NCBI RefSeq assembly: GCF_027887165.1
Contig: NC_077230.1
Coordinates: 289,206,949 to 289,270,948, forward strand
Direction of reading: 5' to 3'
DNA length: 64,000 nt
DNA from: Monodelphis domestica
Taxonomy: Eukaryota
Of this stretch, positions 23,159 to 44,440 are shown one piece after another (positions within the stretch are counted from its first letter, which is position 1; each line of letters starts with the position of its first letter). The notes under the pieces are model-generated. The model was not told the DNA's origin. It worked only from the letters and a program-made list of their open reading frames with translations, and did no database searches. The position numbers were made by a program, and so were the translations under genes.

Positions 23159-23284
23159 GATGGCAATAAATCACTGGATTCCTGTACTCCAAATATTTTT
23201 GAACTTATTGCTACAGAAGATGTAGACTTTCTGCCATATATGGATTGGGAAGTAGAACAGTCTGAGTATGCAATGAAAAAGAAG
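23159..23284 (+). CDS. PARP4: PARP4 exon encoding DGNKSLDSCTPNIFELIATEDVDFLPYMDWEVEQSEYAMKKK
   Basis: Acceptor ttacttag|gat and donor aag|gtaaat. Matches human 'DENESPFPDIPKVSELIAKEDVDFLPYMSWQGEPQEAV'. Confidence 0.88.
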
Positions 23285-24610: not shown

Positions 24611-25109
24611 TTCAACAACTATCAACTGAACACCTCCTAGGTACATTGAACTGTGTAAAGAAGTGTAATGTGCTTTAAATGATTAAAAAAATAAGAAATG
24701 ATTTCAATTATCAAAGAACTCATCCAATACCCAATTCAAAAGGGGAAATTTTTTTAAGTTATATTTTATTTGATCATTTCCAAGCATTATTCATTAAAGA
24801 CATAGATCATTTTCTTTTCCTCCCCCCCTACCCCCCCACCCCCCATAGCCGACGCACAAATCCACTGGGCATTACATGTTTTCTTGATTTGAACCCATTG
24901 CCATGTTGATAATATTTGCATTAGAGTGTTCATTTAGAGTCTCTCCTCTGTCATGTCCCCTCAACCTCTGTATTCAGGCAGTTGCTTTTCCTCGGTGTTT
25001 CCACTCCCATAGTTTATCCTTTGCTTATGAATAGTGTTTTTTTTTCTCCTAGATCCCTGCAAATTGTTCAGGGACATTACACCGCCACTAATGGAGAAGT
25101 CCATTACGT

Positions 25110-28100
25110 TCAATTATACCACAGTGTATTAGTCTCTGTGTACAATGTTCTCCTGGTTCTGCTCCTCTCACTCTGCATCACTTCCTGGAGGTTGTTCCAG
25201 TCTCCATGGAACTCCTCCACTTTATTATTCCTTTTAGCACAATAGTATTCCATCACCAACATATACCACAATTTGCTCAGCCATTCCCCAATTGATGGGC
25301 ATCCCCTCGTTTTCCAGTTTTTGGCCACCACAAAGAGTGCAGCTATGAATATTTTTGTACAAGTCTTTTTGTCCATTATCTCTTTGGGGTACAGACCCAG
25401 CAGTGCTATGGCTGGATCAAAGGGTAGATATTCTTTTGTCGCCCTTTGGGCATAGTTCCAAATTGCCCTCCAGAATGGTTGGATCAGTTCACAACTCCAC
25501 CAGCAATGAATTAATGTCCCTACTTTGCCACATCCCCTCCAGCATTCATTACTTTCCTTTGCTGTTATGTTAGCCAATCTGCTAGGTGTGAGGTGATACC
25601 TCAGAGTTGTTTTAATTTGCATCTCTCTGATTATAAGAGATTTAGAACACTTCTTCATGTGCTTATTAATAGTTTTGATTTCTTTATCTGAGAACTGCCT
25701 ATCCATGACCCTTGCCCATTTATCAATTGGAGAATGGCTTGATTTTTTGTACAATTGATTTAGCTCTTTATAAATATGAGTAATTAAACCTTTGTCAGAG
25801 GTTTCTATGAAGATTTTTTCCCAATTTGTTGTTTCCCTTCTGATTTTAGTTACATTGGTTTTGTTTGTACAAAAGCTTTTTAGTTTGATGTAGTCAAAAT
25901 TATTTATTTTACATTTTGTGATTCTTTCTATGTCTTGCTTGGTTTTAAAGCCTTTCCCCTCCCAAAGGTCTGATATGTATACTATTCTGTGTTTACCCAA
26001 TTTACTTATGGTTTCCTTCTTTATGTTTAAGTCACTCACCCATTTTGAATTTATCTTGGTGTAGGGTGTGAGGTGTTGATCTATTCCTACTCTCTCCCAC
26101 ACTGTCTTCCAATTTTCCCAGCAGTTTTTATCGAATAGTGTATTTTTGTCCCAAAAGCTGGGATCTTTGGGTTTATCGTATACTGTCTTGCTGAGGTCTC
26201 TTTCCCCCAGTCTATTCCACTGATCTTCCTTTCTGTTTCTTAGCCAGTACCAAATTGTTTTGATGACTGCTGCTTTGTAATATAGTTTAATGTCAGGGAC
26301 TGCAAGGCCCCCATCATATGTGTTTTTTTTCATTATTTCCCTGGATATCCTTGATCTTTTGTTCTTCCAAATGAACTTTGTTATGGTTTTTTCTAAATCA
26401 GTGAAGAAGTATTTTGGGAGTTCAATGGGTATGGCACTAAATAGATAAATAAGTTTGGGTAGGATGGTCATTTTTATTATATTGGCTCGTCCTATCCATG
26501 AGCAGTTAATGTTTTTCCAATTGCTCAAGTCTAGTTTTATTTGTGTGGAGAGTGTTTTGTAGTTGTGTTCATATAGTTCCTGTGTTTGTCTCGGGAGGTA
26601 GATTCCTAGGTATTTTATTTTGTCTAAGGTGATTTTGAATGGGATTTCTCTTTCTAGTTCTTGCTGCTGAGCTGTGTTGGGGTTATATAGAAAAGCTGAT
26701 GACTTATGTGGGTTTATTTTGTATCCTGCAACTTTGCTAAAGTTGTTGATTATTTCAATTAGCTTTTTGGTTGAATCTCTAGGATTCTTTAAGTAGACCA
26801 TCATGTCATCTGCAAAGAGTGATAACTTGGTCTCCTCCTTGCCTATTTTGATGCCTTCAATTTCTTTTTCTTCTCTAATTGCTACTGCTAGTGTTTCTAG
26901 TACAATGTCAAATAGTAGAGGTGATAATGGGCATCCTTGTTTCACTCCTGATCTTATTGGGAATGCATCTAGTTTATCCCCATTGCAGATGATATTAGCT
27001 GATGGTTTTAGATATATACTGTTTATTATTTTTAGGAATGACCCTTCTATTCCTATGCTTTCTAGTGTTTTTAATAGGAATGGGTGTATTATTTTATCAA
27101 ATGCTTTTTCTGCGTCTATTGAGATAATCATGTGGTTCTTGCTGGTTTGCTTGTTGATGTGGTCAATTATGTGGATGGTTTTCCTAATGTTGAACCAGCC
27201 CTGCATCTCTGGTATAAATCCTACTTGATCATGGTGAATGATCCTTCTGATCACTTGCTGGAGTCTTTTTGCTAGTACCCTATTTAAGATTTTTGCATCT
27301 ATATTCATTAGGGAGATTGGTCTATAGTTTTCTTTCTCTGTTTTTGACCTGCCTGGTTTTGGAATCAGTACCATGTTTGTGTCGTAAAAGGAGTTTGGTA
27401 GAACTCCCTCTTTGCTTATTATGTCAAATAGTTTGTATAGTATTGGGATTAACTGTTCTCTGAATGTTTGATAGAATTCACTGGTGAATCCATCAGGCCC
27501 TGGGGATTTTTTCTTAGGAAGTTCTTTGATGGCTTGTTGGATTTCATTTTCTGATATGGGATTATTTAAGAATTCTATTTCCTCTTCTGTTAGTCTAGGC
27601 AGTTTGTATTTTTGTATATATTCATCCATATCTCCTAAATTGGTGTATTTATTGCCATATAATTGGGCAAAGTAATTTCTAATGATTGCCTTAATTTCCT
27701 CTTCATCGGAGGTGCTGTCCCCCTTTTCATCTTTAATGCTGTTAATTTGCTTTTCTTCCTTCCTTTTTTTAATTAGATTGACCAATACTTTGTCTATTTT
27801 GTTTGTTTTTTCAAAGTACCAGCTTCTTGTCTTATTTATTAAATCAATAGTTCTATCACTTTCGATTTTATTAATTTCTCCCTTAATTTTTAGGATTTCT
27901 AGTTTGGTTTTCTGCTGGGGGTTTTTAATTTGATCGCTTTTGAGTTTTTTCATTTGCATTTCCAATTGATTGATCTCTGCTCTCCCTAGTTTGTTAATAT
28001 AAGCATTCAGGGATATGAATTTACCTCTGATTACTGCTTTGGCTGCATCCCAAAAGGTTTGAAAGGATGTCTCGCCATTGTCATTTTCCTCGATGAAATT

Positions 28101-28910
28101 ATTAATTGTTTCTATGATTTCTTCTTTAACTAAACGGTTTTGGAGTATCATATTGTTTAATTTCCAATTGGTTTTAGATTTGGTTTTCCATGTACCATTA
28201 CTAATCATTATTTTTATTGCCTTGTGATCTGAGAAGGCTGCATTCATTATTTCTGCTTTTCTGCATTTGTGTGCTATGTTTCTGTGACCTAATGTATGGT
28301 CAATTTTTGTGAATGTGCCATGTGGTGCTGAGAAGAAGGTGTATTCCTTTTTTTCCCTATTTATTTTTCTCCATATGTCTATTAATTCTAATTTTTCTAA
28401 GATTTCATTCACTTCTTTTACCTCTTTCTTATTTATTTTTTGATTTGATTTATCTAAATTTGATAATGGTTGGTTTAAGTCTCCCACTAATATGGTTTTA
28501 CTGTCTATTTCTTCCTTCAATTCTCCTAGTTTCTCCATTAGAAATTTGGGTGCTATATTATTTGGTGCATACATGTTGATTAATGATATTTCCTCATTGT
28601 CTAAAGTCCCTTTTAACAAAATATAATTACCTTCCCTATCCCTTTTGATCAAGTCTATTTTTGCTTTGGCTTTATCAGATATCATGATTACCACTCCTGC
28701 CTTCTTTCTGTCAGTTGAGGCCCAGAAGGTCTTACTCCATCCTTTAATTCTGACCTTGTGGGTGTCAACCTGCCTCATGTGTGTTTCTTGAAGACAACAT
28801 ATGGTAGGGTTTTGGATTCTAATCCATTCTCCTATTCGTCTACATTTTATGGGTGAGTTCATCCCATTCACGTTCAAAGTTATGATTGTCAGTTGTGGAC
28901 TCCCTGGCAT
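25110..28910 (-). CDS. L1 ORF2 protein (endonuclease, reverse transcriptase and Cys-rich domain), 1266 aa, apparently intact
   Basis: Endonuclease N-terminus '[23 protein letters not shown]'; reverse transcriptase motifs '[10 protein letters not shown]' and '[10 protein letters not shown]'; C-terminal '[25 protein letters not shown]'. No internal stops. Confidence 0.9.
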
Positions 28911-29313
28911 TTTGATAGCCTTCCCTAATTCTAACCTTTTCTTCTTCGGCTCTACCTTTTAGTCCAGTGATTTACTTTGAATCAGTCCCCCTTGTCCCCT
29001 CCCTTGATGTTTCCCTTTTTAGTCCCTCCCTTTTTGTTCCCTCCCCCTCCCCCTTCTCTTTCCCTCCCTTTTTGTTTTCCCTCTCCCCCTCCCCCCCTTG
29101 GTTTCCCCTTCTCCCTACCCTTGTTGGGTAAGATAGAATTCAAGATCCCAATGGATCTGGATGTTTTTACCTCTCAGAGTTGATTTCCCTGAGATTGAGG
29201 TTTAAGTAAAAAACCCTCTCTTCCTCTCCTTCTTATAGGAGTTTTCTTCCCCTCCCCTTCCCATGTGAATCTTTGTGTGAGAAAGATTATTCTATTTGGT
29301 CTTTCTTTACCCC

Positions 29314-30408
29314 CTATATATACATTACATTTTCCCCACATGTTAGTATACATAGATTGATATAAATGTTGTCCTTATAGAAGAGAGTTTGAGTAAAAGA
29401 AGAAGATAACATTTTTCCCCTTTCCTTAATATTTACCTTTTCAGGTATTCCTTGCTCTTTGTTTTTCGGTATCAAACTTTCCACAGAGCTCTGGTCTTTT
29501 CTTTGCAAAAAGTTGGAAGTCTCTTCTATTTTGTTGAATGCCCATACTTTCCCTTGGAAGTATATAGTCAGTTTTGCTGGGTTTCTGATTCTTGGTTGAA
29601 GACCCAGCTCTCTTGCCTTTCTGAAGATCATGTTCCATGCCTTACGATCATTCAGAGTACAACTTGCAAGGTCTTGTGTGACCCTGATTGGCATTCCTTT
29701 ATATCTAAATTGTCTTTTTCTGGCTTCCTGTAGGATTTTTTCTTTTGTTTGATAGCTTTGGAATTTGGCAATTACATTCCTGGGAGTTGTCTTTTGGGGG
29801 TTTAGTGTAGAAGGTGTTCTGTGAGCTCTGTCAGTGGCTGTATTGCCCCCTTGTTCTAGAATCTCTGGGCAATTTTCTTTGATTATATCTTGTATCACCA
29901 TGTCGAGTTTGGTGTTTATTTCTGGCTTTTCTGGAAGTCCAATTATTCTTAAATTATCTCTTCTCCCTCTATTTTCCAGATCTGTCACCTTGTCAGTGAG
30001 ATATTTTATGTTCTCTTCTAATTTCTTGGTATTTTGGCTTTGCTTTATTAATTCTTGCTCTTTTACACGATCGTTGTCTTCCAGCTGCCTGATTCTGGCC
30101 TTTAAAGCCTGGTTTTCCTTTTCAGTTTCATCACACTGGTTTTGTAGATGCGTGAATTTCTTTTGCATTATTTCCCACTTTTCCTCCCAGAAGGCTTCCA
30201 TCTTTTTGGTCATTTCTGATTCAAATTCTTCATGGGTTTGTGGAGAGTTTCCATTTCCTTTGGAAGGTTTTGGAGCATTTTCTTGTATATCATCTTCTAT
30301 CTCCTCTGTATTTTGTATTTTGGCTCCATAGAATGTGTCCAAAGTCGCCCCTTTCTTCTTATTTTTCTTGGTATTTTGCGGCTTCTGTGCTTCTGTGGAG
30401 TTTGCCAT
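29314..30408 (-). CDS. L1 ORF1 protein. The likely start is MANSTEAQK at 30408. A 2-bp indel near the C-terminus shifts the frame, and the canonical ending continues in another frame to about 29441
   Basis: Coiled-coil and RRM-like segments are present: 'RRDNLRIIGLPE', 'ENCPEILEQ' and 'RVTQDLAS...KAWN.IFRKARELGLQPRI..PAKL'. After 'KVWAFNKIEE' the frame reads 'TSNFLQRKDQ...', whereas the alternate frame at 29441-29638 gives the canonical 'FQLFAKKRPELCGKFDTEKQRARNT*'. Confidence 0.7.
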   Translation of the reverse strand: MANSTEAQKPQNTKKNKKKGATLDTFYGAKIQNTEEIEDDIQENAPKPSKGNGNSPQTHEEFESEMTKKMEAFWEEKWEIMQKKFTHLQNQCDETEKENQALKARIRQLEDNDRVKEQELIKQSQNTKKLEENIKYLTDKVTDLENRGRRDNLRIIGLPEKPEINTKLDMVIQDIIKENCPEILEQGGNTATDRAHRTPSTLNPQKTTPRNVIAKFQSYQTKEKILQEARKRQFRYKGMPIRVTQDLASCTLNDRKAWNMIFRKARELGLQPRIRNPAKLTIYFQGKVWAFNKIEETSNFLQRKDQSSVESLIPKNKEQGIPEKVNIKERGKMLSSSFTQTLFYKDNIYINLCILTCGENVMYI

Positions 30409-30665
30409 CTCTGAATGTGGAGGATTAGCTTTTCTTATCTCTGTCTGATGTTCAGAGGCTTTAGTCCTGGGCAGATTGTCGGTTCTATGAGCTTTCCCTG
30501 GGTTAAATTGAGTATGCCTTCCGGCAATGACTTTCACTGGAACTGGAATGGAAGGGTCGGACCAGGGGGGCCACATTCTCCCGCGGCTCTATCTGCTTCC
30601 CTGCAGGGGTCGGGTTGCTTTCTGGAAGTTGCCTTCAGAATAGCTGGCCGTGAGGCTGTTTTGTT

Positions 30666-30850
30666 GGCCCTGAGGGTTGCTGTTGTTTCAGAGGACCCTG
30701 CTCTCTGCGGGGGGATGGGCCATGGCTTCCGGGAGCTCCAAGGGCAGTGTGGGACTCGGATAGAAGGCCCTGAGGGTTGCTGTTGTTTCAGACGACCCTG
30801 CTCTCTGAGCGGGGCGGGGCCGCAGCTTCCCGGAGCCTTGGACTCTGTGC
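30666..30850 (-). promoter_or_regulatory. L1 5'UTR tandem monomers (about 100 bp, roughly 1.85 copies), GC- and CpG-rich, a putative internal promoter
   Basis: The direct repeat 'ggccctgagggttgctgttgtttcaga(g/c)gaccctgctctctg...' occurs at 30666 and again at 30766. Confidence 0.6.
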
Positions 30851-31379
30851 TCCTACCCCTTAGGTCTGAGTGATCTCGGGTTCTGGCTTTTGAGGGGGGC
30901 CGTACCTTTTGATCCAGGTCCAGGTCCAGGAGGAGGATTCCCAGGGTCTATGCTGTTGATCATTTTGAATTTCGGCACCTTAGGAGCTTATAGTTTGAGA
31001 TCGGTCGGTAAGGGTTTTCCGGAGATCTGAACTTTAGCTTTCTCTAAGCCGCCATCTTGACCGGAAGTCCAAAAGGGGAAATTTTATGTGTATATATATA
31101 TGTGTATATATATACATATTTAAATTACAGTAAAAGAGACATGATTAATTTCTGACATACATGACACAGACAGTAAATTCAATGGAATCCCAGCCTTCAG
31201 AGAGAAGAGGTGTGATGAAATAAGATCTCCCATTTGACTATATAACCAACTGCATTTTATTTCATTCTGTGCTTGTCTCCTGCCTGACCTCTAGGCTCCT
31301 CTGTAAAGAGGAATGTTGCCTTCCACTCAATGCTAAACATTCTTTTTTCTTTTAGACCTACACATGTCAGTAATTCTGA

Positions 31380-32060: not shown

Positions 32061-35000
32061 AGGAACCAAAGCTTGACAGGCCTCTGAGAGGGAGGGAACA
32101 GATAAATAGGAGCACTACTTCCTCTCTCAGGCAAAACTGCCTCAGAGAAAGTGAAATCGGATCTATGTCCAGAGCTGAAGGGTAAGAGGAAATCCCCTTC
32201 AATCTCTAGTTTCTGTTTTCTTTTCTGGATGAATATTATCTTGAACCCCTTAGTACACTTTGAAGAATGAGATGTTTAGTTCTTCTATAACTTATAAGAT
32301 CTATTTATCAGTTGGAGATTCAGGATTGGTAGATAAGGGAACAGGGAAGATAGGAAATCCCTATTCTATTTTCAACCTAAATTCCCTTTAGGGGTTGAGA
32401 GCTCAGGTCTGGGGACCTGGGTCCCTGAAGACCACTATGGAGTCAGACTGATGTAATTTCCTGATATAGAGATATAGTTTTTTAAAGATATGGATTGAAA
32501 ATCTTCTGGATGGATAGTCTCTTGCCTTCCCCAAATGGAAAAAGTCTCTATCCACCTCTTTTGATGAAAGATGGCTATCTGGGTCTCTTCAGATCAATTG
32601 AGGGATTATAGCAGGCTAAGCTCTGCAAAGTTGCTCTTTTCCCTCTCAGTTCAGAAGGGACAAGAACTCCTTTGCAACTGTTTCCCTACTTTTCTTGGCT
32701 GGAGATTCCAGTCCCATCCCCATCATCAGCCAAAGTTGCATTTCCTTCCTGCATGAGGTTTCCTTGCAAAATCAAGTCTTTGCAGTGTATTCTGTATCTC
32801 TCATCCACACCATCACCCACAAATTCACCACTTTTGTGTTTAAAAATTCTGAAATCCGCTAGAGACTGTACCAAGAGATCTGACAAAGCTCCAAGAGGGG
32901 AGACTGACAGCCCCAAAACCAAAACAAAATGAGAGGAGCAAGAGCACAGCCAAATACGGGGAGCAAAGAAGGGGTAAACTCAAGCAAACAACAGAAAAAG
33001 AAGAAAGAGACAGCTTCTGCACAGGTAAGGAGCAAAGAGCGAATGAAACAGAGGGGGAGGACCCAGCAGAGAAAAAATCAGAAATCCCAGCGAATTGGAT
33101 ACAGGCTTTGGAAGAACTCAAAATGCAATTCAAAACACAATTAAGAGAGGCTGAAGACAATTGGGAAAAGAACTTAAAAACTGAGATAAGTCATCTGGAA
33201 ACAGAAAATAGTGTCTTGAAAGCAAAAATCAACCAGCTGGAAAATGAGGCAAAGGAGATGAAAGATGAGGCAAAGCAGATGAAAGATGAGGTGAAGAAGA
33301 TGAAAGATAACCTCCAAAGAAAACCGACCAAAAGGAAAAGGACGACCAAAAAACTAAGGATGAAATCCAGTCTTTAAGAACCAGAATACAACAACTTGAA
33401 TCGAGCGACCTCACAAGGCAGCAAGACACTATAAAAGAAAACCAAAAGAATGAAAAAATTGAGGAAAATATGAAGCATCTCATTCACAAAACAGAGGATT
33501 TAGAAAATCATTCAAGGAGAGACAATTTAAGAATTATTGGCCTACCAGAAGACCATGACAAAAGAAAAAGCCTGGACATTATATTACAGGAAATTATTAA
33601 AGAAAACTGCCCCGAAATCCTTGAACAAGAGGGAAAAGTAGAGATTGATAGAATCCACAGATCACCTCCTGTACTTAATCCCCAACTGACAACACCCAGC
33701 AATGTTATAGCCAAATTCAAGAACTATAAGACCAAAGAAAAGATATTACAAGCTGCCAAGAAGAAGTCATTCAGATACCAAGGAACCACAGTGAGGATAA
33801 CTCAGGATCTGGCTGCATCCACACTGAAAAAAAGAAAGGCATGGAAGACGATATTCCGGAAAGCAAGGAAACTAGGTCTACAACCAAGAATCAACTACCC
33901 AGCAAAACTGACTATATTCTTACAGGGGAAAGTATGGTCATTCAACAAAATAGAAGAATTCCAAGAATTCGTAAAGAAAAGACCAGACCTGAACAGAAAA
34001 TTTGATGTCCAAGCACAGAACTCAAGAGAATCATCAAAAGGTAATTAAAAAAGAAGGGAAAAAAGAAAAACAAAAAAAATTTTTTAAGAGACTCAATAAG
34101 TTAAAATGATATGTATCCCTATAAGAAAAGAGGTCATTGGTAACTCTTAAAAACTGTTGTTATTAGCTGGGCAGCAAAAAGAAGTATACTTAGAGGGAAC
34201 AGCAACAAACTGTATAGGATGAAAGGACAAGACATAAATAGGTATATAGATATATGCATGCAAAAATACATACGCATGAGTATGCATATATATATATAAC
34301 TAGAGCTTAAAAATAGGTTAATATTAAAAGAAATGGGAAAAGAAACAAATGGAGGTAAATTTATATGTCATAAAGAAGCTCATGGTGGGAGGGGGGAGAA
34401 CATCAATACACTGAAAGGGTAAAGAGGTCAGAGATAGGAAATACTCAACTTTTACGTGCTTTGAAAGTGACTCAAAGAGGGAAAAACAATCCAATCCATT
34501 GGGGGCAGAGAATAGATTTGCACCCTATAGGGGAGTAGAAGGGTAACAAATGGTCTGGTGGGGAGGGAAGCAGTACAAGAGAGGGAGGGAGCGGGGGGTT
34601 AATTTTAGAAAGACTACAGGGAAAATAAGGGGGGGGATAAATAGGGAGGGGGGTAGAAAGGGAAGTAAAAAAAGAGTGGGAACAAGGGGGAATGTTCAAA
34701 AGCAAACATTGGTGTAGAAGGAAATAGTGAAAGAAGAAAAGGCAGGTAAAGGAGCAGAAATAAAAATGCTGGGAAATACACAGCTAGTAATCATAACTCT
34801 GAATGTGAATGGAATGAACTCACCCATAAAACGCAAGTGAATAGCAGAGTGGATTAGAGTCCAAAACCCTACCATATGCTGTCTACAAGGAACACATATG
34901 AGAAAGGTAGATACACATAGGGTGAAAGTAAGAGGGTGGAGCCAAATCTATTGGGCATCAACTGACAAAAAAAAGGAAAAAATGCAAAGAAAGGAGGACT

Positions 35001-37190
35001 TGCAGTCCCAGATCTCAAACTATACTATAAAGTAGTGGTTATCAAAATAATTTGGTACTGGCTAAGAGACAGAAAGGAGGATCAGTGGAATAGACTTGGA
35101 GTAAATGATCTCAGCAAGACAGTTTATGACAAACCCAAAGACCCCAGCTTTTGGGACAAAAATCTATTATTTGATAAAAACTGCTGGGAAACAAAGAGAT
35201 AATGGACAAAAAGACTTGTACAAACATATTCATAGCTGTGCTCTTTGTGGTGGCCAAAAACTGGAAAACGAGGGGATGCCCATCAATTGGGGAATGGCTG
35301 AGCAAATTGTGGTATATGTTGGTGATGGAATACTATTGTGCTAAAAGGAATAATAAAGTGGAGGAGTTCCATGGAGACTGGAACAACCTCCAGGAAGTGA
35401 TGCAGAGCGAGAGGAGCAGAACCAGGAGAACATTGTACACAGAGACTAATACACTGTGGTATAATCGAACGTAATGGACGTCTCCATTAATGATGGTGTA
35501 ATGTCCCTGAACAATTTGCAGGGATCCAGGAGAAAAAAACACTATTCATAAGCAAAGGATAAACTATGGGAGTGGAAACACTGAGGAAAAGCAACTGCCT
35601 GAATACAGCGGTTGAGGGGACATGACAGAGGAGAGACTCTAAATGAATACTCTAATGCAAATATTATCAACAAAGCAATGGGTTCAAATCAAGAAAACAT
35701 GTAATGCCCAGTGGATTCACGCGTCGGCTATGGGGGGTGGGGGGGAGGAAAAGAAAATGATCTATGTCTTTAACGAATAATGCTTGGAAATGATCAAATA
35801 AAATATATTAAAAAAAAACTGCTGGGAAAATTGGAAGACAGTGTGGGAGAGATTAGGTTTGGATCAACACCTCACATCCTACACCAAGATAAATTCAGAA
35901 TGGGTGAATGACTTGAACATAAAGAAGGAAACTATAAGTAAATTAGGTGAACACAGAATAGTATACCTGTTAGACCTTTGGGAAGGGAAAGATTTTAAAA
36001 CCAAGCAAGACTTAGAAAGAGTCACAAAATGTAAAATAAATAATTTTGACTACATCAAATTAAAAAGGTTTTGTACAAACAAAGCCAATGTAACTAGAAT
36101 CAGAAGGGTAGCAACAAATTGGGAAACAATCTTCATAAAAACCTCTGACAAAGGTTTAATTACTCAAATTTACAAAGAGCTAAATCAATTGTACAAAAAA
36201 TCAAGCCATTCTCCAATTGATAAATGGGCAAGGGACACGAACAGGCAGTTCTCAGCCAAAGAAATCAAAACTATTAATAAGCACATGAAAAAGTGCTCTA
36301 CATCTCTTATAGTCAGAGAGATGCAAATCAAAACAACTCTGAGGTATCACCTCACACCTAGCAGATTGGCTAACATAACAGCTATGGAAAGTAATGAATG
36401 CTGGAGGAGATGTGGCAAAGTAGGGACATTAATTCATTGCTGGTGGAGTTGTGAATTGATCCAACCATTCTGGAGGGCAATTTGGAACTATGACCAAAGG
36501 GCAATAAAAGACTGTCTGCCCTTTGATCCAGCCATAGCACTACTTGGTTTGTACCCCAAAGAGATAAGAAGGAAAAAGACTTGTACAAGAATATTCATAG
36601 CTGCACTCTTTGTGGTGGCCAAAAATTGGAAAATGAGGGGATGCCCTTCAATTGGGGAATAGCTGAACAAATTGTGGTATATGTTGGTGATGGAATACTA
36701 TTGTGCTAAAAGGAATAATAAAGTGGAGGAATTCCATGGAGACTGGAACAACCTCCAGGAAGTGATGCAGAGCGAGAGGAGCAGAACCAGGAGAACATTG
36801 TACACAGAGACTGATACACTGTGGTACAATCAAAGGTAATGGACTTCTCCATTAGTGGCAATGCAATGTCCCTGAACAATCTGCAGGGATCTAAAAAACA
36901 CTATCCACAAGCAGAAGATAAACTGTGGGAGTAAAAATACCTATGAAAAGCAACCGCCTGACTACAAGGTTGGAGGGGATATAACTGAGGAGAGACTCTA
37001 AGTGAACATTCTAATGCAAATACCAACAACATGGAAGTGGGTTTGAATCAAGAACACATGTGATACCCAGTGGAATTGCGCGTGGGCTATGGGAGAGGTG
37101 GTGGGAGGGAGGGGAGGGAAGAAAAGAAAATGATCTTTGTTTCCAATGAATAATGTTTGGAAATGACCAAATAAAAATTAAAAAAAAAAA
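32060..37190 (+). mobile_element. L1 element, sense to PARP4, with a degenerate ORF1, a large internal deletion in ORF2, and a nested L1 insertion
   Basis: ORF1 pieces at 32929-33144, 33108-33377 and 33470-34048 include 'RRDNLRIIGLPEDHDKRKSLDIILQEIIKENCPEILEQEG...'. The ORF2 endonuclease start '[14 protein letters not shown]' is at about 34800. At about 34985 the sequence jumps to the ORF2 region '...GGLAVPDLKLYYK'. The ORF2 C-terminal ORF at 35841-36662 is followed by a 3'UTR and poly(A) at about 37175-37190. The 5' boundary near 32060 is uncertain. Confidence 0.75.
35186..35818 (+). mobile_element. Nested 5'-truncated L1 insertion (ORF2 C-terminus 90 aa plus 3'UTR plus poly(A)) inside the host L1 ORF2, with a target-site duplication
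   Basis: The left flank '...aaaaactgctgggaaa|caaagag' and the right flank 'ttaaaaaaaaa|ctgctgggaaaattgg' share a 13-15 bp direct repeat. The host L1 ORF2 reading '...[17 protein letters not shown]' resumes exactly after the insertion. The inserted ORF at 35202-35474 is '[51 protein letters not shown]...'. Confidence 0.8.
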
Positions 37191-38884: not shown

Positions 38885-38914
38885 CTCTCTCTCTCTCCCT
38901 CTCTCTCCCTCCCT

Positions 38915-38990
<76 letters not shown>
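38885..38990. repeat. (CT)n / (CCCT)n microsatellite
   Basis: Read directly from the sequence. It generates spurious ORFs such as 'MRERERERER' and 'LSLSLSLS'. Confidence 0.95.
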
Positions 38991-38994
<4 letters not shown>

Positions 38995-39619
38995 GTGTCA
39001 CCTAGCTACCCCTATCAGGGCAAATTTCTTAAGACTATAAGCTCCAAAAGACGTGCTGACCTTCAATGGGAGAGGGAATTTTTTAATCTGAGAATATCAT
39101 GTAGTATAACATCACAGTTACAGTACTATCCCAGCTCTATCAAAATAGTTATATTAAAGTATTGTTAATTAACATAATCACACTGTCAGTGCCTCAATTC
39201 TACAGATGCTACTCCTATTTTTTTCATAGTAAGTAAAAATACAAAATGTATTTTATTCTAAAAGCAAAACATGATAATTATCACCACTTCCAGTTTTCTA
39301 CTTTGTGTAGAATACGTGGATAATCTAAGGAAAATGCAGGATGCTCTCACCTCCCTCTGTGATCTTTATATATGACAAACATGCATGTTATTAATCAGTG
39401 AAGGTGAACAAAAAACGAATGTAAATTTTCCTAGTATTTGTATTGGATAGGAATAACATTAAAAGAATATACTTAACATTCTTTTTTTTAAAACAATTTT
39501 TTGGGAGGACTTCATTTTCTTTTATCTTCATAGTTATTCTCAGTATCCTTCTTCCTCCCCCTCTCAGAGAGCCTTACCATATAAAAATAATATTTTTTAA
39601 AGAATAAATAAAAGAGAAT

Positions 39620-42480: not shown

Positions 42481-42913
42481 AATCAATAGAAAAGAAATGC
42501 TTATTAACTTGAAAATTAAAAGCAAAAAGCAAGAAAGGAAGAAGCAGCTGCTAAGAGAGGTAGAAGCAATTGCTTCTGGAACCATGACTATCAGTCCTGT
42601 GTGCAATTCCCACAGGAGAGGCTTGGCTGCTATCCTGTATTATTGTGTACTAAACTTATCCATATTGTACAAAGGATGACTAGATTATAATAATAACAGT
42701 TTAAAATCTTTAGGAAATCTTTAGTATCTTAATCATTTAGTGATATTAAAAAGATTGATTTATATATTATTCACCTTGTGTTTTTGATGCCTGTTGTCTT
42801 CATTTAAATTACTTTGGAAATCACCTCCTCAAATGTTCTTTAGTTGTTAAACTGCTTTAAAAACTAAACTCTTGTATTTTGTTCTGTTTTCCCTTTCTTA
42901 CATGAAATACCAG

Positions 42914-44350
42914 TTGAAACGATGTGCCAAAAGTTATCTTTCAACGGAGCAACATAATTTTATAGTTCCTCATAAAGATCCATCTGTATTTAAGTTAGAT
43001 TCAGAGAATGTTACTTTTGGGGACACTGTTCCTTGTTTGACAACATTTTCAGCACCACTTCATTTTCAAGACAGTCCAGAAAGAGAGTCTGAACTACAAT
43101 CAAGAGGGATAGATTACTCAGGAATAGATGAGGGAATAGAGGAAATGGAGGAAATGGATGGAATTCTTTTTTGTTCATTACAGATTACTCCTGGTACATC
43201 ACCAGAAACATCAGCAGATCTCTTCTTTGCTTCTGACCAGGATGGCCATTCCAAAGCAATAAATGTTGCTAAGAAAGATTCAGAGAAGGAAGTTTTATTT
43301 CATAAACATGAAAATCAAGATAGGAACTATGCAACCCGTTTCCTTCTTTCCTCTCCAGTTCCTCCCCCTCCTGTCCCTGTGGTTAATTCCTCAGGTTTAT
43401 TTGGTTCCTCCTTTGCTGCTCCTCATTCAGCCTTTGCCTTACCTACTACTACATTCCCTACTACTACTTTTATTCCTGCAAACTCTCTTTCTTCTCCTAC
43501 TTTAGACCAACTATCAGCTGACATTTTTCACTCTCCTCGTTCTCCTCGTTATCTTCCTCCTTTTTCTTTTTCTCGTACTAATCTTTCCTCTAATACTCCT
43601 CTATTTGGTCTTCCTCCTCCTCCTCCTCCTCCTCCTCTAGGTTCTGTTTCTATTGCTCCTCCTCCTCCTCTTCCAGGTTCTATTTCTCTTCCTCCTTCTC
43701 TTCTAGGTTCTGTTTCTATGTCTCCTCCTCCTCCTCTTCCAGGTTCTGGTCCTCTTCCTTCTCCTCCTCCTCCTCCTCTAGGTTCTGTTTCTATTACTCC
43801 TCCTCCTCCTCCTCTTCCGGGTTCTATTTCTCTTCCTCCTTCTCTTCTAGGTTCTGTTTCTATGTCTCCTCCTCCTCCTCTTCCAGGTTCTGGTCCTCTT
43901 CTTCCTCCTCTTCTAGGTTCTGTTTCTCTCCCTCCTCCTGCTCCTCTTTCAAGTTCTGGTCCTCTTCTTCCTCCTCTTCCAGGTTCTGTTCCTCCTCCTC
44001 CTCCTCTTTCAGGTTCTTTTCAGCTTTGTTCTAAATCTCAGTTAAATTCATTTGAGTTTCCAAGTAAAATGCATCAACCACCTTTAATACTTAAGGAGAG
44101 GTCTGATGGACCAAATGCCACTCCTCCAGATGTTAGTTTAGGAGATAAACCATTAATTTGGGAAAAAACAAAAAAGTTTGCATCAAGTCGTGGACCTATT
44201 TTTGGACTGAAAAAAGATGGACAACTGCCACGGCCCCACCAGCTTCTTCTTTCTCCATCCAGAGATGTTAGATCAGAAGCAGTGACTTCAGGTTTCTCAT
44301 TTAGAGAAAAGAATTCTGTAGAACAGAATGTTACCTCATCTGAAGCTAAG
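42914..44350 (+). CDS. PARP4: PARP4 giant exon (479 codons). Low-complexity, Ser/Pro-rich region with an expanded polyproline tandem repeat, ending ...NVTSSEAK
   Basis: Acceptor taccag|ttg at 42911-42913 and donor aag|gtaagg at 44351. A continuous ORF in phase with the flanking exons. Human PARP4 also has one very large, poorly conserved exon at this position. Confidence 0.8.
43600..44010 (+). repeat. PARP4: Coding tandem repeat inside the PARP4 giant exon. A unit of about 141 bp, built from about 45-bp sub-repeats, encodes polyproline motifs (PPPPLPGS(I/G)SLPPSLLGSVS...)
   Basis: 'ctaggttctgtttctatt(g/a)ctcctcctcctcc...' recurs at 43638 and 43779. A further partial unit begins at about 43915. 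Confidence 0.8.
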
Positions 44351-44440
44351 GTAAGGTGATGTGTTTTAGAAACAAATTTAGATAAGATCTGCATAAAGTA
44401 CATGAAAGTTTTCTTTACTGACTTTATCTTTGCCTTTCAG

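Follow-up and report, generated by a model that had tools for sequence, protein, structure and literature searches.

The stretch of DNA analyzed here, referred to as the window, comprises 64,000 nucleotides of the Monodelphis domestica genome and harbors a full-length L1 retrotransposon, which occupies 24753-31069 of the minus strand and spans 6,317 bp. An initial annotation had correctly recognized the element as full-length but had drawn its limits at 24757-31078; the element proper is bounded by target-site duplications (TSDs). These duplications, which that annotation had proposed looking for, are present and perfect. The direct-repeat search paired a 16-bp sequence at the 3' end of the element (24737-24752, reading CAAAAGGGGAAATTTT on the plus strand) with another at its 5' end (31070-31085), and the two copies, to which no strand is assigned, are identical at 16/16 positions with a spacing of 6333. 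In element orientation the duplication begins AAAA, and the bottom-strand nick site is 5'-TTTT/AT. The 16-bp TSD, the TTTT/AT nick site and an AATAAA motif with an A-tail 3-7 A long are hallmarks of LINE-1 target-primed reverse transcription (TPRT). Insertion proceeded by endonuclease-dependent TPRT at the TTTT/AT site, in antisense orientation, into an intron of PARP4.

All the parts of a complete L1 are found on the minus strand between these limits. A 5'UTR (30409-31069) is followed by ORF1 (29441-30408), an inter-ORF spacer (28911-29440), ORF2 (25110-28910) and a 3'UTR (24753-25109). The spacer, 530 nt when counted from the canonical ORF1 stop, is rich in purines and G, and contains imperfect short tandem repeats at 29012-29127 as well as a G4-type motif at 29091-29120. 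The 357-nt 3'UTR houses a G-rich tract of the G4 type (24822-24844), the AATAAA motif (24765-24770) and a very short A-tail, with only 3 A beyond the TSD (24753-24755). Paralogs inside the window share this 3' end, and their A-tails are likewise short. An Rfam scan of the whole window returned 0 matches.

The host gene is read from the opposite strand. PARP4 exons run collinearly on the plus strand on both sides of the L1, with 12 collinear exon matches; these matches provided a lead only, the identity of the gene being drawn from the exon translations of the window, which match proteins named PARP4, none of those returned being an opossum protein. The intron that hosts the L1 is about 19.6 kb long and follows the PARP4 exon at 23189-23266. 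When the empty site is reconstructed, stops interrupt each of the three frames, and insertion into an exon was therefore rejected, in keeping with the original placement of the element antisense within a PARP4 intron. The window also contains a large P-rich exon at about 42851-44356.

The 5'UTR is 661 nt in length, with a GC content of 55% and 23 CpG dinucleotides (obs/exp 0.47). It carries a YY1 box, CAAGATGGC, on the minus strand at 31051-31059, which is 10 nt from the 5' end, at element position 11. Within it, a GC-rich core of 71 nt is duplicated (30666-30736 and 30766-30836, minus strand), the two copies being 87% identical and 100 nt apart from start to start. The duplication has a local score of 97, against 22 or less in shuffled sequences. 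The cores are separated by a 29-nt unrelated spacer and followed by a 16-nt vestige; apart from this vestige, no third copy rises above shuffled background in the 5'UTR of the element. Tandem 100-bp monomers had been described at 30666-30850. The GC-rich repetition and its 100-nt spacing are real, but there is no array, only a single duplication of the 71-nt core, and TRF called none over it.

The comparison that had been drawn with the monomeric promoters of rodents is consequently wrong in kind. Direct repetition of a GC-rich 5'UTR segment is the extent of the likeness; a rodent-type monomer promoter was rejected on account of the YY1 start, a typical feature of L1s outside the rodents, and the single core duplication; both place the element outside that architecture. 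Rodent monomers are about 200 bp long in the mouse and about 650 bp in the rat. Rodent L1s have no terminal YY1 box and instead bear arrays of promoter monomers together with a tether (PMC5381506). For opossum L1 the same work has already described the YY1 start, a 5'UTR with short tandem motif duplications and 31 CpG, and a long intergenic region; by comparison, the 5'UTR of the present copy has two motif copies rather than three and 23 CpG rather than 31.

An antisense promoter in the 5'UTR had also been proposed to drive antisense PARP4 transcripts, which reverses the orientation. As the L1 is antisense to PARP4, it is its sense promoter that would yield antisense PARP4 RNA, while an antisense promoter would read PARP4 in the sense direction. 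No description of an antisense promoter of opossum L1 was found in the literature consulted. Apart from its presence as intronic DNA, in an antisense orientation that is commonly tolerated, the element has no demonstrated effect on PARP4.

ORF1 consists of the canonical 321 codons with an additional 2-bp insertion. It begins with MANSTEAQK, as first reported, with its ATG at 30408, and is of the Transposase_22 type, a class defined by coiled coil, RRM and CTD (PF02994 at 2.5e-16). The frame aligns with human ORF1p (2ykp) at 2.6e-31 and has the RRM and CTD fold regions. A match to PF17490 is cut short by the frameshift and covers only positions 3-43 of 65. The frameshift arises from a +2 (GA) insertion at 29520-29523, where this copy carries GAAGAGACTTCC, and displaces the frame after codon 296 of 321. 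The shifted frame continues to a stop at 29314, and the canonical tail, FAKKRPELCGKFDTEKQRARNT with its stop, is found in another frame at 29441-29509. Deletion of the GA (29520-29523) gives an ORF1 of 321 aa, which is exactly the family length, with 97% identity to P0113. The initial annotation was thus right that a 2-bp indel replaces the last 25 residues and that the canonical ending lies in another frame, but it had placed the indel near codon 330 and extended the ending over 29441-29638.

Neither is the damage to ORF1 restricted to its tail, as had been thought. The replacement Y276N (29581-29583, minus strand) strikes the YPAKL motif, in which S275R is also present, and aligns with the tyrosine of human YPAKLS. 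Alanine replacement of YPAKLS282-287 severely lowers retrotransposition (PMC2951350). With the final structured segment of the C-terminal domain stripped away by the +2 frameshift and the conserved YPAKL tyrosine gone, ORF1 appears to be inactivated.

The frameshift itself may predate the insertion, since another opossum copy carries it as well. The M. domestica ORF1 entry P0120 has an identical frameshift junction and 41 identical residues of the shifted tail (KIEETSNFLQRKDQSS...), and among the ORF1 sequences compared it alone shares the state S250C (29659-29661, minus strand). The two copies thus have two derived characters of one segment in common, which lends some credence to the tentative view that the source element already carried the +2 frameshift; the latter would then mark a small ORF1-defective L1 lineage and would not be a lesion acquired after insertion. 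The copying of such a lineage would either rely on ORF1p provided in trans or dispense with a functional ORF1p C-terminus. Against this, P0120 is the only such relative among the cluster representatives and members examined, and it bears its own 14-aa deletion in the coiled coil. Moreover, this deletion and the sequence DQTV assign its N-terminal half to a different subfamily, so that shared ancestry would require recombination or gene conversion. The site itself is a GA-repeat/T5 tract, and P0250 is independently frameshifted 4 codons away, which makes recurrent slippage plausible. The strong cis preference of L1 also counts against an inherited frameshift. The shared lesion could accordingly reflect either a frameshift-prone site or ORF1-defective L1s mobilized in trans. 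It seems improbable that it marks a sub-lineage that went on producing copies despite an ORF1p without its normal C-terminal helix, whether by means of ORF1p in trans or through a tolerated 68-residue tail; if true, this would be a natural example of the propagation of an ORF1-defective L1.

ORF2 encodes 1266 aa with the endonuclease (EN), reverse transcriptase (RT) and Cys-rich domains, and the original description of it as an intact frame at 25110-28910 is confirmed, in that it has no internal stops and retains all three domains. Pfam matches are to Exo_endo_phos (1e-12) and RVT_1 (1.8e-44), and the alignment of the protein with human ORF2p (8sxt) covers its full length, at E=0. A chance open frame is ruled out by the 1266 codons in DNA of 35% GC together with this homology. 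The catalytic residues N13, E42, D144/N146, D204 and H229 are present, as are IDAEKAFD and FADD, and so the lack of catalytic residues on alignment that the initial annotation had allowed for does not arise. The EN, RT and Cys motifs are all retained, among them one at 699 and CX3CX7HX4C at residue 1123. The PIP-like box is not Q-initiated, and this is the same throughout the family.

That ORF2 is open and its catalytic motifs are intact is nevertheless no proof of activity. The frame ends at a premature TGA (25110-25112) that is 2 codons ahead of the family stop, leaving 1266 aa against the 1268-aa family form, and this shortening is due to a CGA>TGA change at a CpG. In addition, five private replacements, all of them non-conservative, fall at conserved sites on the minus strand: R23C (28842-28844), E324K (27939-27941), G568E (27207-27209) and E1068V (25707-25709) alter residues whose conservation extends from fish to mammals, and the residue altered by Q608I (27087-27089) is conserved in mammals. 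Some of the private ORF2 replacements may be fixed states of an active subfamily that lies outside the sample. On the basis of the 4-5 non-conservative changes at conserved positions and the loss of 2 C-terminal residues, the ORF2 protein is probably impaired, and the suggestion that it could be supplied in trans is, with R23C, E324K, G568E, E1068V and Q608I in place, doubtful. ORF2 would have remained open mainly because little time has elapsed since insertion.

The nearest relatives of both proteins are L1 proteins of Monodelphis domestica, at 96-97% identity. For ORF2 the identity is 96% to M. domestica clusters with 171 and 252 members, and for the repaired ORF1 it is 97% to a cluster with 87. 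These values and the ORF1 of 321 aa assign the copy to the L1-1_MD type, the comparison having been made through proteins. Among the opossum L1 families of Repbase, L1-1_MD is the youngest, and it is the one used in PMC4408412 and PMC5010896. Features held in common with this type are the long repeat-bearing spacer between the ORFs, the YY1 box at the 5' end, the duplicated motifs of the 5'UTR and a 3'UTR rich in G; the copy differs in having an ORF2 of 1266 rather than 1268 aa and an ORF1 with a frameshift and Y276N.

Dating was based on paralogs within the window and on protein comparisons. ORF2 differs from the consensus of the youngest M. domestica cluster at 42/1266 residues, about 13 of which are ancestral states common to the older opossum L1s P0003 and P0004 and about 13-23 of which are private, a split that is approximate, having been made with 38 protein sequences. 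Only 2-3 residues of ORF1 are private. Comparison with paralogs in the window over about 600 nt of the 3' region shows 3 private substitutions, all of them CpG>TpG and one of them the ORF2 stop, and there are no private non-CpG changes. Exact look-ups found no record of DNA encoding the ORF2 of the window, P0120 or P0085, and a scan of metagenome and viral contigs for the exact pattern of a conserved 32-mer gave 0 matches. From these sequence comparisons the copy would seem to be geologically young, with about 0.5-0.9% private change; it belongs to a Monodelphis L1 lineage near the youngest cluster of the L1-1_MD type but a little outside it. The insertion had been called very young. Youth is upheld by the 16/16 TSD and the 3 private changes in about 600 nt, but "very" is not, given the position outside the youngest cluster, the 42/1266 differences and a CpG decay that has already begun.

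The same decay bears on the accuracy of the assembly. It is very improbable that faulty sequencing or assembly gave rise to the 2-bp ORF1 insertion, the ORF2 TGA or both, such that the true element, with GAAGACTTCC at the ORF1 site and CGA at the ORF2 site, would be doubly intact and potentially active. Dinucleotide repeats are indeed error-prone, the copy is otherwise near intact, and about 500 doubly intact opossum L1s exist (PMC4408412). However, the identical frameshift is present in the independent database protein P0120, Y276N and the conserved-site changes in ORF2 are substitutions rather than typical indel errors, and the pattern of 3/3 private 3'-region changes, the stop included, being CpG>TpG is a signature of real germline decay.

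A competent ('hot') L1 has two intact ORFs, whereas in this copy ORF1 has the frameshift and Y276N, and ORF2 is 2 aa short. We regard the locus, with a probability of roughly 85%, as a full-length opossum L1 inserted by endonuclease-dependent TPRT antisense in a PARP4 intron and now disabled. As judged from its sequence, the copy is very probably immobile, and it is best viewed as a non-autonomous relic. It is unlikely that it is instead a very recent and functionally relevant copy, one that acts in trans as a source of active ORF2p for elements such as SINE1_Mdo and whose 5'UTR drives transcripts that affect PARP4. The open ORF2 with all its catalytic and Cys motifs, the complete 5' end with its YY1 box and a still moderately CpG-rich 5'UTR would be in accord with such a role; human ORF2p is able to associate with its RNA independently of ORF1p (PMC2951350), and opossum L1 and SINE1_Mdo have been reported as active (PMC4408412). 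It is countered by the five non-conservative replacements at conserved sites and the C-terminal truncation of ORF2, by the 23 CpG of its 5'UTR as against the published 31, CpG decay elsewhere suggesting germline methylation of the copy, by its place outside the youngest cluster, and by the wrong orientation of the proposed antisense-promoter effect.

The element is of a type that is already known; it has thousands of similar copies, and all of its features have been described previously. The opossum genome contains about 13,000 full-length L1s, and about 500 have both ORFs intact (PMC4408412). Its value beyond annotation is small, as the YY1 start, the duplicated 5'UTR motifs and the repeat-bearing spacer have been published (PMC5381506). 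With human L1 (L1HS/L1PA; 8sxt, 8uw3, 2ykp) it shares an ORF2p that can be aligned collinearly over 1253 residues and has every catalytic residue, the RRM and CTD fold regions of ORF1p, the 5' YY1 box, and insertion by TPRT at a site of the TTTT/A type, with a TSD. In contrast to human L1, with about 53% identity in ORF2 and an unrelated 5'UTR, the opossum copy has a 530-nt spacer, a very short A-tail and the PIP-like box KAIIRNYF. Long spacers between the ORFs have been reported only for the L1s of opossum, elephant, hyrax and pig, whereas those of most other mammalian L1s are 26-82 bp (PMC5381506).

The element is a complete LINE-1 of 6,317 bp (24753-31069, minus strand). It is a real, well-preserved and ordinary member of an already known opossum L1 family, of a type and architecture that have been described, in a genome with about 13,000 full-length L1s (PMC4408412). 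The initial annotation suggested looking for flanking target-site duplications (TSDs), and a perfect 16-bp direct repeat (16/16), CAAAAGGGGAAATTTT, is indeed found at 24737-24752 and 31070-31085. As the TSD starts with AAAA in the orientation of the element, the first-strand nick is placed at 5'-TTTT/AT on the bottom strand, which is a normal site for the L1 endonuclease. The A-tail past the TSD comprises only 3 A's. A (TA/TG)n microsatellite (31085-31119) directly adjoins the insertion site.

All parts of the element are encoded on the minus strand. The 661-nt 5'UTR (30409-31069) starts with GACTTCCGGTCAAGATGGCGGC and contains a YY1 box, CAAGATGGC, at element position 11 (31051-31059). It is followed by ORF1, with its ATG at 30408 and the start MANSTEAQK, a purine/G-rich inter-ORF spacer of 530 nt, ORF2 (28910-25110), and a 357-nt 3'UTR with AATAAA at 24765-24770 and a G4-type G-tract at 24822-24844. 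This tract, which differs in length between the in-window paralogs, is one of two G-quadruplex-type motifs in the element, the other being found in the spacer (29091-29120, minus strand).

The 5'UTR had been described as carrying 100-bp tandem monomers like those of rodent L1 promoters, a description that does not hold. It harbors two 71-nt cores (30666-30736 and 30766-30836) of 87% identity, positioned 100 nt apart and separated by 29 nt of unrelated sequence. No third copy of the core rises above shuffled background in the 5'UTR, and TRF reports no tandem array there. Opossum L1s have been reported to contain motifs of ~70-100 bp in three tandem copies with 31 CpGs in the 5'UTR, and a long spacer with imperfect short tandem repeats, while a YY1 box is found at the start of mammalian L1s, mouse and rat excepted (Boissinot and Sookdeo, PMC5381506). 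The element matches this description in its YY1 start, in its duplicated 5'UTR motif and in its long spacer, where imperfect short tandem repeats are also present (29012-29127), and its architecture is therefore the published opossum one. It differs in having two cores rather than three motif copies, and 23 CpG rather than 31. The 5'UTR has a GC content of 55% and a CpG observed/expected ratio of 0.47, and only its first 200 nt marginally qualify as a CpG island. A rodent-type monomer array is dismissed, given the YY1 start and the two cores without an array.

The ORF2 frame is open over 1,266 codons, with Pfam matches to the endonuclease domain and RVT_1, and residues 5-1257 align to structures of human ORF2p, 8sxt among them (E=0). 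Equivalents of the endonuclease residues N14, E43, Y115, D145, N147, D205 and H230 are present, and the reverse transcriptase aspartates and the CX3CX7HX4C motif are kept. To this extent the earlier account of ORF2 stands, with the qualification of an early stop and of replacements at conserved sites. The nearest database proteins, M. domestica L1 ORF2 at 96% identity (clusters of 171 and 252 sequences), belong to a family whose full-length protein has 1,268 aa and ends in ...LWYNRT. The target reads AAT TGA ACG TAA where a 95%-identical paralog (35192-35812) reads AAT CGA ACG TAA, and its stop, which comes two codons too soon, is thus a C>T transition at a CpG. In all, 42 residues differ from the young-family consensus (up to 38 proteins). 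Of these, ~13 agree with the older opossum L1 proteins P0003 and P0004, and the element therefore descends from a slightly older or sister subfamily; ~13-23 of the 1266 residues are private. Several private changes are non-conservative and affect positions conserved far outside marsupials: R23C (R in 12/16 eutherian and 26/42 non-mammalian L1s), E324K (E in 16/16 and 30/42), G568E (G in 14/16 and 26/42), E1068V (acidic in nearly all L1s compared) and Q608I (Q in 15/16 eutherian L1s and every opossum sequence). R23C (TGT) and E324K (CTC AAA) are of a form expected from CpG decay. ORF2 is thus an open frame of uncertain activity. Human ORF2p has the PIP-like box QTTIREYY, whereas the aligned opossum residues 407-414 (~27669-27692, minus strand) read KAIIRNYF in the target as in each M. 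domestica family member seen, so that the family as a whole lacks the canonical leading Q.

The private ORF2 residues would correspond to roughly 0.5-0.9% nucleotide change if neutral. A comparison of ~600 nt at the 3' end with two in-window paralogs gives 3 substitutions private to the target, each a C>T at CpG, and zero private non-CpG changes; the figure for the 95% paralog is ~20. Intact copies of L1-1_MD, the youngest opossum family in Repbase, differ by a mean pairwise distance of 1.3% and form the putatively active opossum set (PMC4408412); the target is in the same age class. The perfect TSD and the few private changes agree with the proposal of a very young insertion, and the older-subfamily states and CpG decay temper it: the insertion is young without being brand-new, with methyl-CpG decay already visible.

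The element is very probably immobile. Read from MANST, ORF1 keeps to the family frame for 296 codons and departs from it at GAAGA[GA]CTTCC (29520-29523), with the shifted junction marked by GAAGAGACTTCC; the canonical tail, FAKKRPELCGKFDTEKQRARNT*, runs on in another frame to 29441. Removal of the GA yields 321 aa, the exact family length, and 97% identity over 100% of the M. domestica ORF1 entry P0113 (cluster of 87 sequences). Alignment to human ORF1p (2ykp) locates the frameshift within the structured C-terminal domain, and the Pfam match to the dsRBD-like domain is accordingly limited to positions 3-43 of 65. Damage is not confined to the tail, as had been thought, since a second lesion was overlooked: every relative has I(S/N/G)YPAKL, whereas the target has IRNPAKL. 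The lost Tyr aligns with that of human YPAKLS, and substituting alanines for YPAKLS282-287 impairs RNP localisation and causes a severe drop in retrotransposition (PMC2951350). S250C is the sole other unusual residue in the repaired ORF1. The uncorrected frame (29314-30576, 420 aa) includes a foreign tail and 56 in-frame 5'UTR codons (30409-30576, minus strand), up to an ATG at 30576. A homologous extension is present at the N-terminus of the M. domestica ORF1 entry P0114 (392 aa); the upstream extension and this likeness may reflect chance or annotation artefact.

The only thread of modest interest at the locus is that the ORF1 frameshift is shared, and it may have been inherited from the source element. 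P0120, a distinct M. domestica entry with its own 14-aa deletion in the coiled-coil, is identical to the target at the junction and over 41 residues of the shifted tail, and among the ORF1 sequences compared it alone shares S250C with the target. However, the N-terminal half of P0120 belongs to another subfamily, and the entry P0250 is frameshifted independently, four codons downstream in the same GA/T5 stretch, which makes recurrent slippage or gene conversion live alternatives to inheritance. This GA-repeat/T5 stretch (29509-29526), where the last ORF1 helix begins, seems to be frameshift-prone.

With regard to the host gene, an approximate probe sequence detects 12 collinear PARP4-like exons on the plus strand, from position 1 to 55996, and translations of the window's own exons retrieve proteins named PARP4 by their sources. 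The L1 sits between the exon at 23189-23266 and that at ~42851, in an intron holding many older L1 fragments, and all frames of the reconstructed empty site contain stops. The collinear exons and these stops bear out the original placement of the L1 as antisense in a PARP4 intron. The suggestion that an antisense promoter in the 5'UTR could drive antisense PARP4 RNA has the orientation reversed: it is the L1 sense promoter that points antisense to PARP4, and a hypothetical antisense promoter would run in the PARP4 sense direction, toward the exon at ~42851. The literature on opossum L1 covered here documents no such antisense promoter. A Pro/Ser-rich open frame of 502 codons (~42851-44356, plus strand) is probably a large, poorly conserved PARP4 exon undetected by the human probe; coding repeats occur within it (…LPGSISLPPSLLGSVSMSPPPPLPGSGPL…, two or more times).

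The 95%-identical paralog (35192-35812, plus strand) is a 5'-truncated young L1 3' end with the ORF2 tail ...LWYNRT. It is flanked by a duplication of ACTGCTGGGAAA type and nested in an older L1 ORF2, split KNCWE|NWK (34966-35191 and 35800-37176). Another older L1 (33311-34045, plus strand), of ~70% DNA identity to the target, has kept a 245-aa ORF1-like open frame (…INYPAKLTIFLQGKVWSFNKIEEFQEFVKKRPDLNRKFD…), and a long (CT)n-type run, translated as SLSLSL…, is found at ~38900-39000.
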